In this document: piece after piece, positions 1-1,226 of the stretch
Position numbering within the stretch: position 1 is the first letter of the stretch
How the letters are laid out: each line of letters starts with the position of its first letter
Source: Candidatus Bipolaricaulia bacterium
GTDB lineage: Bacteria; Bipolaricaulota; Bipolaricaulia; JBHIAT01
Direction of reading: 5' to 3'
Assembly: GCA_046758705.1 (NCBI GenBank)
Contig: JBHIAT010000010.1
Span: 1 to 42,985, forward strand
Length of the DNA: 42,985 nt
Made by a program: the position numbers and the translations under genes
Notes under the pieces: model-generated
What the model was told of the DNA's origin: nothing
Database searches by the model: none
The model's input: only the letters and a program-made list of their open reading frames with translations

Positions 1-175
1 CGCTGCAAGATTCACTTCATGTTACGGGCTGCTGTTTTGCTCCCCTTCCACAGGGAGATACATCACTTCAGCACATCCGGTCACCCCGATGCACTGGATG
101 CCTGCTACATGGCCGTCTGGCAGTTACCACGACCGGACTCCCACCGGTTAGCAGACGACAGCTTTCAGGGCACAC
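1..175 (-). mobile_element. 5' end (domain I) of a group II intron, continuing beyond the window start
   Basis: Minus strand begins GTGTGCCCTGAAAGCTG at 175 (GUGYG 5' consensus), followed by non-coding, hairpin-rich sequence (AACCGGTGGGAGTCCGGT; GCATCCAGTGCATCGGGGTGACCGGATGTGC; AAGTGAATC) resembling domain I. CAGCG at 5..1 is complementary to the last 5 exon bases CGCTG. RT ORF and domain V are not in the window. Confidence 0.7.
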
Positions 176-197
176 CAGCGAGCGGTTAGCAGGCATC
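176..197 (-). other. left part of attC site (R'' box and start of L''), interrupted by the intron
   Basis: Minus strand GATGCCTGCTAAC-cgctcgctg just after the higA stop; 11/13 inverted match to the other cassette end GTTAGTGGGCATC (866..854). Confidence 0.65.
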
Positions 198-204
198 GCC
201 CCCA

Positions 205-510
205 TCATTGGAGCTTAGTATAGACCTTGACTTCCCGCTCAAGGCGATCCCCGAACTTATCCTCCTCGACGTCCAGGTCATACTGCGCCTGTAGCCCCAA
301 CCAAAACTCAGGTGAAGTGTCGAAATACCGCGCTAGACGGAGCGCCGTGTTCGCTGTTACACTCCGCTTCCCCAAGACGATCTCGTTGATCCGGCGCGGA
401 TCGACGCCAATGTCCAACGCCAACCGATGCTGGCTCAGGCCGAGAGGCTTCAAAAACTCCTCCTGCAACACCTCTCCCGGATGCACTGGTGCCATTCTCT
501 TCTCAGTCAT
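205..510 (-). CDS. higA: HigA/VapI family antitoxin (HTH XRE)
   Basis: PVHPGEVLQEEFLKPLG...RRINEIVLGKRSVTANTALRLARYFDTSPEFWLGLQ; RBS GGAGGT; follows higB. Confidence 0.95.
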   Translation of the reverse strand: MTEKRMAPVHPGEVLQEEFLKPLGLSQHRLALDIGVDPRRINEIVLGKRSVTANTALRLARYFDTSPEFWLGLQAQYDLDVEEDKFGDRLEREVKVYTKLQ

Positions 511-522
511 TTCAACTACCTC

Positions 523-804
523 CTAGTGATAATCCGTAATCTCTACTTCGTAAGCGTCGTTCTCGTGCCACACGAAGCAAATCCGCCACTGATTGTTGAT
601 GCGAATCGAATGTTGCCCTTCGCGATCCTCCTTCAACTTCTCCAATCGATTCCCTGGCGGGGAGCGTAGATCTTGGAGCGATTTAGCGTTGTTCACCATC
701 CTAAGCTTCCGAAGCGCGATCCGCTGGATCTCTTGCGGACGCCTCTTCGAGTAAACGCGACGATAGACTTTCTCGGTCTCTTTGTCCTTGAAGGACTTAA
801 TCAC
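523..804 (-). CDS. higB: HigB (RelE/ParE superfamily, plasmid-maintenance killer type) toxin
   Basis: MIKSFKDKETE...LRSPPGNRLEKL..DREGQHSIRINNQWRICF.W...AYEVEITDYH; start placed at GTG 804 rather than 825. Confidence 0.95.
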   Translation of the reverse strand: MIKSFKDKETEKVYRRVYSKRRPQEIQRIALRKLRMVNNAKSLQDLRSPPGNRLEKLKEDREGQHSIRINNQWRICFVWHENDAYEVEITDYH

Positions 805-810
805 ATCGAA

Positions 811-839
811 AGCATATCGTGCCACGCGCTAAGCGTCAA
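811..839 (-). promoter_or_regulatory. sigma70-type promoter of higBA, probably leaderless
   Basis: TTGACG-17 bp-TATGCT, 6 nt upstream of the GTG start; no RBS. Confidence 0.65.
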
Positions 840-853
840 ACACTAAGGAGCAA

Positions 854-890
854 GATGCCCACTAACGGCACACCGCTTCACCTGCGGCGG
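854..890 (-). other. right half of an attC site (L' and R' boxes) marking the start of the higBA cassette
   Basis: Minus strand ccgccgCAGGTGAAgcggtgtgccGTTAGTGggcatc; crossover G/TT at 866. The left arm is not visible. Confidence 0.55.
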
Positions 891-1055
891 AAGTCTTCCA
901 GCAATTCCTTCTTCGCTTCTGTGACAGCTGTGTAGAACCATTCGTAGAACTCGGTGATCGCCTCCTGGTACCTATGAACAGCAAGTGACACGTCAACCTT
1001 CTCTCGATCCGCAGCTTCCCGAATGTACACGCGTGCTCGGGGTGACCAGTCGTAC
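878..1055 (-). pseudogene. 3' remnant of an unknown cassette gene
   Basis: Frame YDWSPRARVYIREAADREKVDVSLAVHRYQEAITEFYEWFY... ends in the attC half-site; its 5' end abuts the intI start with no credible start codon. Confidence 0.45.
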
Positions 1056-1226
1056 GTGGCACAACGCCCGAAGAAACTCCTGAACCAGGTGCGCGATGCC
1101 ATCCGGCTTAAGCACTATTCTATCCGCACCGAACAGGCCTATGTCACCGTGCGGGTGTGGATCGGCGGCGGGCTGATGCTGGCCGGAAGCGTGCTGATCG
1201 TCCTGTCCCAGGCCGATCTGATCTAA
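1056..1226 (+). pseudogene. intI: truncated integron integrase N-terminus fused to an unrelated hydrophobic C-terminal fragment (EamA/DMT-like)
   Basis: PKKLLNQVRDAIRLKHYSIRTEQAYV is the typical IntI N-terminal SAM-like motif; similarity stops near 1146 and switches to VRVWIGGGLMLAGSVLIVLSQ. Divergent from the cassette array, as in canonical integrons. Confidence 0.85.

Follow-up and report, generated by a model that had tools for sequence, protein, structure and literature searches.

Group II introns of a Chloroflexota-associated lineage probably home into the cassette-sense strand of attC sites by pairing with the R'' box

With reference to the available literature, attC sites of integrons are known as targets of one lineage of group II introns, the IIC-attC introns, which read the folded bottom strand, lie antisense and block cassette transcription. 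The portions of the two papers available to us describe these introns as bottom-strand insertions that run against the neighbouring genes (PMC3001079), and at R'' of the folded bottom-strand attC, at TTGT/T (PMC7923331). As far as the accessible text goes, top-strand insertion into attC is in print as a single case from a clinical class 1 integron of Enterobacter cloacae, with an intron classed as IIC, and integron arrays of halophiles contain IIB introns in cassette orientation, namely UHB.I2 (class CL1) and H.ha.F1/F2 (class E) (PMC7923331). In this study, a window of 42,985 nucleotides (nt) was investigated, which is the start of contig C10 (G000:C10:1-42985; JBHIAT010000010.1) in the 319-contig, 93.9% complete metagenome-assembled genome (MAG) GCA_046758705.1 of a Candidatus Bipolaricaulia bacterium, and which opens inside a group II intron that stands next to a higBA toxin-antitoxin cassette. 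We consider it likely that this intron belongs to a lineage of Chloroflexota-associated group II introns that home into the top strand of attC sites and base-pair with the R'' box. All positions follow the numbering of the window.

On the minus strand, the higA stop codon TGA (207..205) is followed by TGCTAAC (191..185), by CGCTCGCTG (184..176) and, from 175, by GTGTGCCCTGAAAGC; the 29 nt downstream of higA thus end in TGCTAAC-CGCTCGCTG, and 9 nt separate TGCTAAC from the intron sequence GTGTGCCC. The Rfam model RF02003 (group-II-D1D4-4) covers 150..17 on the same strand, and its score of 75 bits (gathering score 49, E 9e-15) is far beyond chance; with GUGUG as its 5' end at 175 and a domain I that fits a curated covariance model, the element is a group II intron. 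Only 175 nt of it are present, as the contig end at position 1 cuts the rest, and these are intact, with the best relatives scoring 75.3 bits under the same model. No domain V/VI of this copy was found in the window or the MAG, and BLAST with window 1-260 and with the complete relatives matched only the window itself among the 319 contigs. The first-pass annotation of this DNA had described the intron exactly to the base, terminal CAGCG included, and had placed it in cassette orientation, 9 nt past an R''-type box of an integron; the direct reading of the sequence, the same layout in relatives, the remnant of the integrase gene intI, the inverted repeat at the cassette boundary and the replicate locus L022 all bear this out. 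The features of this region are as follows, where IBS1 and IBS2 are intron-binding sites and ORF is open reading frame.

1..175, minus strand: 5' end of the group II intron (start of domain I); RF02003, and 90% identity over 176 nt to the complete ORF-less copy L025
1..10, minus strand: conserved motif UUGCAGCG, including CAGCG at 5..1; kept with small changes in the related introns L045, L046 and L082, which have unrelated exon ends
176..181, minus strand: putative IBS1, exon -6..-1 TCGCTG, which would pair with CAACGA with one C.A mismatch
185..190, minus strand: putative IBS2 GCTAAC, exon -15..-10, complementary to GUUAGCC in complete relatives
185..191, minus strand: R''-type box TGCTAAC of the higBA cassette attC, in the same register at 9/10 assembled sites and in read-level flanks
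182..197, minus strand: 3' arm of the cassette-flanking inverted repeat, GATGCCTGCTAACCGC, 16 nt, 81% complementary to 854-869
205..510, minus strand: higA antitoxin gene; TIGR02607, 109 bits (cut-off 47.7)
523..825, minus strand: higB toxin gene; PF05015, 65.6 bits
854..869, minus strand: 5' boundary of the cassette, GCC-GTTAGTG-GGCATC, with a G/TT junction of R'/attI type, complementary to the R'' region
1065..1163, plus strand: N-terminus remnant of an integron integrase, about 33 codons; NF011946 (E 3.9e-6), TIGR02249 (E 9e-4), PF13495

The setting of the window is an integron, in which higBA is the first cassette beside a decayed intI. The intI remnant corresponds to residues 15-47 of an ORF at 1023-1226 (plus strand), divergent from higBA, in which the integrase homology stops after about 33 codons and scores far under the full-length cut-offs, marking it as a fragment. 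Within the first 1400 nt, the best inverted repeat joins the R'' region (182-197) to 854-869, with 13 of 16 positions complementary, and the G/TT-type junction lies on the integrase side of higB, on the cassette strand. The R'' of the window is imperfect (TGCTAAC), and the 3' half of its attC lies beyond the contig end.

A search with a 22-nt word of the intron returned 10 metagenome loci, which represent eight distinct sites (L017, L018 and L019 being one site), together with one locus, L026, in a Chloroflexota MAG, giving a related set of 11 copies at nine sites besides the window, or 10 sites with it. All copies align from GTGTG on and diverge immediately upstream. The sequence left of the window, which the first-pass annotation had suggested retrieving, is not in the MAG; the insertion sites of homologues, which it had also suggested tabulating, display a box of the YYAAC/YTAAG type (GCCTAAC, GCCCAAC, GGCTAAC, GGCTAAG) that ends 8-9 nt before GTGTG at 9 of the 10 sites, the window included and L016 being the exception. 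The exon ends are likewise conserved, with G at -1 and T at -2 at all 10 sites, Y at -3 at nine, G at -4 at seven and C at -5 at eight, so that the consensus of the lineage reads NCGYTG. Loose ends at 164, 177, 182 and 189 in four hydrothermal-vent metagenome runs add about eight further 5' flanks, each with an RYYYAAC-type box in register.

attC sites follow the gene as imperfect hairpins of about 57-141 nt, bounded by R'' (RYYYAAC) and R' (GTTRRRY) boxes. Given this near-palindrome, an RYYYAAC-type box opens the hairpin on either strand and does not by itself distinguish the two; the top-strand call rests on gene polarity, integrase polarity and the side of the G/TT junction. Eight sites have sufficient sequence upstream, and at each of them the intron begins 29-340 nt past the longest ORF on that side and shares its strand. 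Pfam or NCBIfam families support four of these eight ORFs, namely higA and those of L022, L024 and L025, and none supports the other four; cassette ORFs are commonly without family support. The orientation of the intron fits the polarity of intI in both loci that contain one, the window and L022. In L022, an integrase (TIGR02249 positions 4-141 with 190 bits and 141-246 with 130 bits, in two frames, cut by the contig end) is followed by a spacer GTTGGGC, one ORF with an F5/8 type C domain, GCCCAAC, 9 nt and the intron on the strand of the ORF, and the spacer GTTGGGC is the exact 7/7 complement of the R'' box GCCCAAC.

Two copies are complete, L020 with 569 nt and L025 with 838 nt; they run from GUGUG to CUGACCCUAC (end CUAC), possess domains V and VI and contain no protein gene, and in both the 3' exon starts with C and ends in a box of the GTTRRRY type. 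With the intron removed in silico, the L020 site extends from GCCCAAC to GTTGGGC over about 88 nt, its boxes pair, the 3' exon ending in the exact complement of R'', and an inner helix of 11 bp spans the insertion point. The L025 site extends from GGCTAAC to GTTAGAG over about 130 nt, with an inner helix of 12 bp from the first base of the 3' exon. In both intron-less sites the insertion point thus falls within the 5' arm, past R'' and ahead of the inner helix.

Intron pieces are nested in L042 (G065:C135:1-2903). There, no more than about 100 nt separate an intron with an intact reverse transcriptase (RT) gene, carrying FADD for YADD, from a subsequent ORF-less piece that shares 78% identity with L025 in domains V-VI; a GNAT-like ORF comes after this piece and has an attC-like GTTCAAC...GTTAACC site behind it.

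Concerning the intron protein, remnants of its N-terminus are kept in L025 and L022. The 60-residue remnant of L022 shares 91% identity with the start of P0002, a protein of 431 residues for which RVT_1 and GIIM are the only domains listed, and which is one of 950 proteins with E <= 0.001 among 960 candidates. Against solved structures, P0002 scores 231 (7uim), 213 (6ar1) and 205 bits (5hhj) with IIC proteins, and 195 bits with LtrA and 186 with 6me0; because the latter two are close behind the IIC proteins, these matches leave the class of the intron unsettled. The search for a copy with an intact protein gave domain V/VI matches only in the DNA of 184 class relatives, a best identity to P0002 of 56% in 184 + 301 + 401 genomes, nothing in viral contigs or in the genome of L026, and a best identity of 60-64% among plasmids, in Leptospira. 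Related introns were obtained by the identity of their proteins to P0002, namely L045 (G241, 55%), L046 (G227, 51%) and L082 (G706, 55%).

Another related intron, L070 (G119:C184:1-2123), with a protein 56% identical to P0002, ends in GGTCTAC and is followed by CAATG and at once by GTGTGTCC of a second copy, a tandem or circular arrangement on a contig of 2.1 kb.

Regarding the recognition of the exon, CAGCG (5..1) had been proposed as a candidate exon-binding site 1 (EBS1) in the first-pass annotation, a proposal that is probably wrong. CAGCG sits in the motif UGCNGCNUCG (also given as UGCAGCGUCG), whose counterparts in L045, L046 and L082 read UGCCGCGUCG or UGCCGCAUCG, while the exon ends of these relatives are CUCGUC, CCGCCG and GUUGGC, respectively, without a match at the place of the motif. 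Because a true EBS1 would change with the exon, the motif is judged from this comparison to be probably structural. The complementarity of CAGCG and CGCTG is real and spans 5 bp only; matches of at least 6 bp occurred in 330 nt for 657-1295 of 2000 shuffled exons, and a chance match of this size is common. CAGCG was thus rejected as a general EBS1, the motif being constant and the exons different, and it could still serve copies with the exon end CGCTG.

Directly 3' of this motif lies a candidate exon-binding site 2 (EBS2), which reads GUUAGCC in the lineage of the window, UUUAUU in L045, GUGUGU in L046 and AUCUUA in L082. Its exon partners are GGCUAAC at -16..-10 in L025 and CUAAC in L024, and, at -14..-9, AAUAAA, ACACAC and UAAGAU in L045, L046 and L082. 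The consensus fold of the four lineages leaves the EBS2 columns unpaired and is too shallow to fix the loop of EBS1. The EBS1 candidate is found about 40 nt beyond EBS2, between the conserved CCGAG and CGAAGG, where the segments CAACGA (twice), GGCGAG, CGGCGG and GCCGAC face UCGUUG, CUCGUC, CCGCCG and GUUGGC at exon -6..-1. Compared with random exons, and with the intron windows fixed beforehand, the EBS2 pairing of 6 Watson-Crick bp has p 0.0035 in L045 and 0.0029 in L046, and the EBS1 pairing has p 0.025 in L045, 0.0044 in L046 and 0.004 in L024, a copy of the lineage whose TCGTTG exon is perfect with CAACGA; the pairings of L082 were read by eye and carry no p. Segments and exons covary across the four intron lineages, and by this covariation the EBS2 of the window copy would lie about 7 nt, and its EBS1 about 47 nt, beyond the contig end.

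In exon recognition of the IIA/IIB type, EBS2 lies 5' of EBS1 in domain I, and the two face exon positions of about -13..-8 and -6..-1. The order of EBS2 before EBS1 and their register are as in IIA/IIB introns, in the summary that the available text of PMC7923331 gives, and the EBS1/IBS1 pairing has 6 bp; judged from sequence, exon recognition is of the IIA/IIB type and not IIC-like. The earlier suggestion that this lineage targets attC in its own way stands for the sense strand and the R''-L'' arm, and its longer EBS1 gives way to a pair of EBS2 and EBS1; the IIC framing that it implied does not agree with EBS2/IBS2 and a 6-bp EBS1/IBS1. By eye, the aligned copies display no consistent hairpin in the 5' exon. 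EBS2 could in principle also pair with the bottom-strand box; if it does, IBS1, replication or transcription must be what decides between the strands.

Comparatively, the lineage resembles the IIC-attC introns, such as S.ma.I2 of Serratia marcescens, in its specialisation on attC, its place at the R'' end, the splitting of the gene from its attC and the endonuclease-less proteins, as far as these are described in the consulted portions of PMC3001079 and PMC7923331. The bottom-strand rule for IIC-attC introns, on which the first-pass annotation had relied, is stated in PMC3001079. IIC-attC introns use the folded attC as the IIC stem-loop with an IBS1 of 3-4 bp and no EBS2, whereas the present introns lie in the sense strand, 8-9 nt past R'', at NCGYTG/C, with a candidate EBS2 on R''. 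Neither bottom-strand insertion nor TTGT/T at R'' was observed (8/8 sites sense; NCGYTG ends), and in place of the IIC arrangement, a short IBS1 after a stem-loop without EBS2/IBS2, the sequences point to recognition of the IIA/IIB type. The intron of Enterobacter cloacae, compared by its description only, is a single IIC case from a clinical class 1 integron, unlike this recurrent lineage; it weakens the novelty of sense-strand attC insertion, which is not unprecedented, and a recurrent lineage that reads R'' via EBS2 was not found in the literature searched.

With the IIB introns of halophiles, in the text available of PMC7923331, the lineage shares EBS1 and EBS2, the cassette orientation and arrays rich in toxin-antitoxin cassettes. 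UHB.I2, by the same text, lies immediately after attC, and its homologues show little conservation of the flanking exons; the H.ha copies lack their 5' ends, which leaves their sites undefined, and that text describes no R'' pairing for the halophile IIB introns. Full-text searching, judged on titles and abstract openings, found no description of EBS2 pairing with attC; it found no literature on group II introns in Chloroflexi integrons, and for same-orientation introns in integrons PMC7923331 alone was relevant. ORF-less bacterial group II introns are rare and live beside related protein-coding copies, according to the portion of PMC4424553 available; like them, L020 and L025 keep domains I-VI without a protein gene, and here both of the two complete copies are ORF-less.

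From these comparisons we propose that a mobile intron of the Chloroflexota-associated lineage would enter the coding-sense strand of attC sites, and that the window copy would have split the attC of the higBA cassette in this way, 9 nt past R'', in the R''-L'' arm. The single-stranded GUUAGCC, which resembles an R' box, would serve as EBS2 and pair with R'' (exon -16/-15..-10), and the CAACGA loop about 40 nt on would serve as EBS1 and pair with exon -6..-1 (NCGYTG), the two pairings presumably driving the homing. The remainder of the window attC, in the unseen 3' flank, would then hold an L'-R' arm ending in GTTAG..., complementary to GATGCCTGCTAAC. As attC is conserved in its R'' part, a single EBS2 could suffice for many cassettes, which would fit the many independent insertions. 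In the sense orientation, cassette transcripts would include the intron and could splice it out. The protein of the lineage would have about 430 residues (RT and maturase, no endonuclease domain listed), and the many copies that have lost the gene would need it in trans.

This would be a second and mechanistically different solution for reaching attC besides IIC-attC, with R'' read by base pairing in the sense strand, many independent insertions and ORF-less derivatives, in environmental genomes of the Chloroflexota type. If the pairing is true, it offers a simple, reprogrammable rule for attC targeting, a cassette would be immobilised at the DNA level by the split of its attC with the intron still spliceable from the transcript, and the idea of introns building cassettes becomes testable in the sense orientation. 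A wider version, in which a IIB-like lineage with an R'-mimicking EBS2 homes to the sense strand of any attC and also provides a direct route to new cassettes, seems to us a long shot. On that route, with the intron transcribed and spliced as part of the cassette mRNA, an attC copy would recombine with an ectopic copy behind an ordinary gene, and splicing and reverse transcription would leave the gene joined to attC in the right orientation; if true, this would be the cassette-formation idea of Leon and Roy, as summarised in the available text of PMC7923331, without its antisense problem.

Several observations weigh against homing to attC by R'' pairing. The window copy itself consists of 175 nt, and its EBS2, EBS1, domain V, protein gene and 3' exon lie outside, while five of the nine other sites hold fragments that have lost the 3' part of the intron. 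No copy with an intact protein was recovered with this ribozyme, and the link to P0002 amounts to about 57 aligned residues. The TCGCTG exons of the window, L025 and L021 have a C.A mismatch with CAACGA, and CAGCG pairs better with them, over 5 bp; the IBS1 fit is poor in L022 (3 nt paired) and L020 (a mismatch), and the EBS segments are identical in all copies of the lineage, which gives no covariation within it. The fold energies of the intron-less sites are not significant against dinucleotide shuffles (L020, z=-1.64, with 20/300 shuffles as low; L025, z=+0.10, with 160/300 as low), and a regex and fold scan of the 2-kb flanks of nine loci on both strands gave no further attC, being too strict to weigh either way; its sole match included intron sequence. 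It is thus boxes, boundaries and integrases, not thermodynamics, that speak for attC. In addition, domain V of L020 and L025 reads CGC, in which the first C is unpaired and faces U, a non-standard pair, and scores 34.7 and 39.9 bits with RF00029 against a gathering score of 40, suggesting that these two copies may be inactive; in L046 and in the ORF-less piece of G065 the triad reads AGC by eye.

Some of these points would also suit other accounts of the locus. If the intron were an ordinary IIC-attC intron in the bottom strand, with neighbouring cassettes inverted, for example self-promoted toxin-antitoxin ones, its sense orientation would be an illusion of the palindrome; such cassettes do have their own promoters, a box of the RYYYAAC type is available on either strand, the closest solved relatives of P0002 are IIC (7uim and 6ar1), and domain V of L020 and L025 reads CGC, the triad of IIC introns in place of AGC. 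We regard this account as extremely improbable, as the upstream ORF is co-oriented with the intron at 8/8 sites, intI polarity agrees at 2/2 and the G/TT junction is on the integrase side on the strand of the intron; further, the insertion is at NCGYTG/C, 8-9 nt past the box, and not at the TTGT/T at R'' after a folded stem that the consulted part of PMC7923331 gives, and the EBS2/IBS2 pairing that the alignments suggest is one that IIC introns lack. The target might instead be no attC at all: the intron would home to a 15-nt YTAAC-N3-CGYTG downstream of genes, with a coincidental likeness to R''. The fold energies, no better than shuffles for L025 and marginal for L020, the scan without extra sites, the insertion of the related L045, L046 and L082 into sites unlike attC and the locus L026, which has no integrase within 2 kb, would all agree with that, and we still hold it to be very unlikely, given that an integron integrase adjoins the interrupted site in two loci, that the box has a complement in the integrase-side boundary (13/16 positions in the window, 7/7 in L022), that in L020 an exact complement of the box closes the 3' exon, at a distance of 88 nt and with an inner helix of 11 bp, and that the flanking genes are short, unrelated, co-oriented and cassette-like.

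A different matter is whether the window element is a relic without present activity, either a dead 5' fragment or an ORF-less derivative; this concerns the state of the copy and not how it arrived, and we give it a considerable chance, somewhat short of even. Besides the five fragments, cut at intron positions 53-431, the nine other sites comprise two ORF-less copies and two cut by contig ends; RVT_1 or GIIM matches occur nowhere in the MAG, 93.9% complete as it is, and intI is itself a remnant. On the other side, the 175 nt present are intact and match the best relatives in score, and the contig breaks where the depth rises several-fold, as for a repeat rather than a deletion: in the four vent runs, the summed contig depth over 73-192 is 3-10x that over 193-700. 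The contig thus ends at the intron because the intron is a repeat, and MAGs often lack the protein gene of an intron that is repeated. The copy may still be active, and the repeat explains why such arrays break metagenome assemblies. The contigs of the four runs aligned to the window gave no letters past position 1, no joint and no intron-less allele.

The 3'-truncated fragments, which keep the 5' end, are L016, L017-19, L021, L023 and L026, with cuts at intron positions 53, 89, 129, about 243 and 431. Incomplete reverse transcription should give the opposite pattern, 5'-truncated copies, and neither a common breakpoint nor a GTTRRRY box was seen at the cuts of the five.

Within the window, a perfect 11-nt complement between exon 197..187 and intron 107..97 and a 10-nt identity between exon and intron, CTGCTAACCG, were set aside as chance or as a side effect of R''-like sequence, because all copies keep the intron side in spite of their different exons. 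The R''-like box CTGCTAACCG occupies intron positions 23-32 (152..143), and the R'-like EBS2 lies about 155 nt from it, so that domain I of this lineage resembles attC in its two boxes, a likeness that is missing in L045, L046 and L082.

Other intron pieces of the same MAG (C122, the end of C34 and C28) were considered as the rest of the window intron and are unrelated to it. One is an ORF-less group II intron of about 870 nt at C122:1640-2512 (minus strand; RF02003 77.8 bits, domain V 37 bits), with an apparent remnant of the protein N-terminus by eye and a sequence unlike that of the window intron. At C34:24620-25833, the contig end begins within the group II RT motif PLGIPTIKDRVVQMAA, and the RT fragment is directly broken by an opposite-strand transposase gene that is flanked by TATATA and is IS630-like by eye only.

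Among the neighbouring genes, a higBA pair 86% identical to that of the window is found in a class relative (L007, G051:C49:11540-12165) beside an oxidoreductase-like gene, without cassette boundaries or intron, and so yields no intron-less allele. In the window, the presumed attI region holds a 74-codon ORF (878-1102, minus strand), which overlaps the plus-strand integrase remnant. A second N-terminal remnant of intI, at C28:26530-26830 of the same genome, has 83% DNA identity to window 1057-1145 and ends near the same codon; it adjoins a tandem array of four inverted repeats, which are about 45 nt long each and follow the pattern TTAGACGG-N8-CTGTCTAA, and has toxin-antitoxin-like ORFs (AbrB/PIN types, by eye) on both sides.

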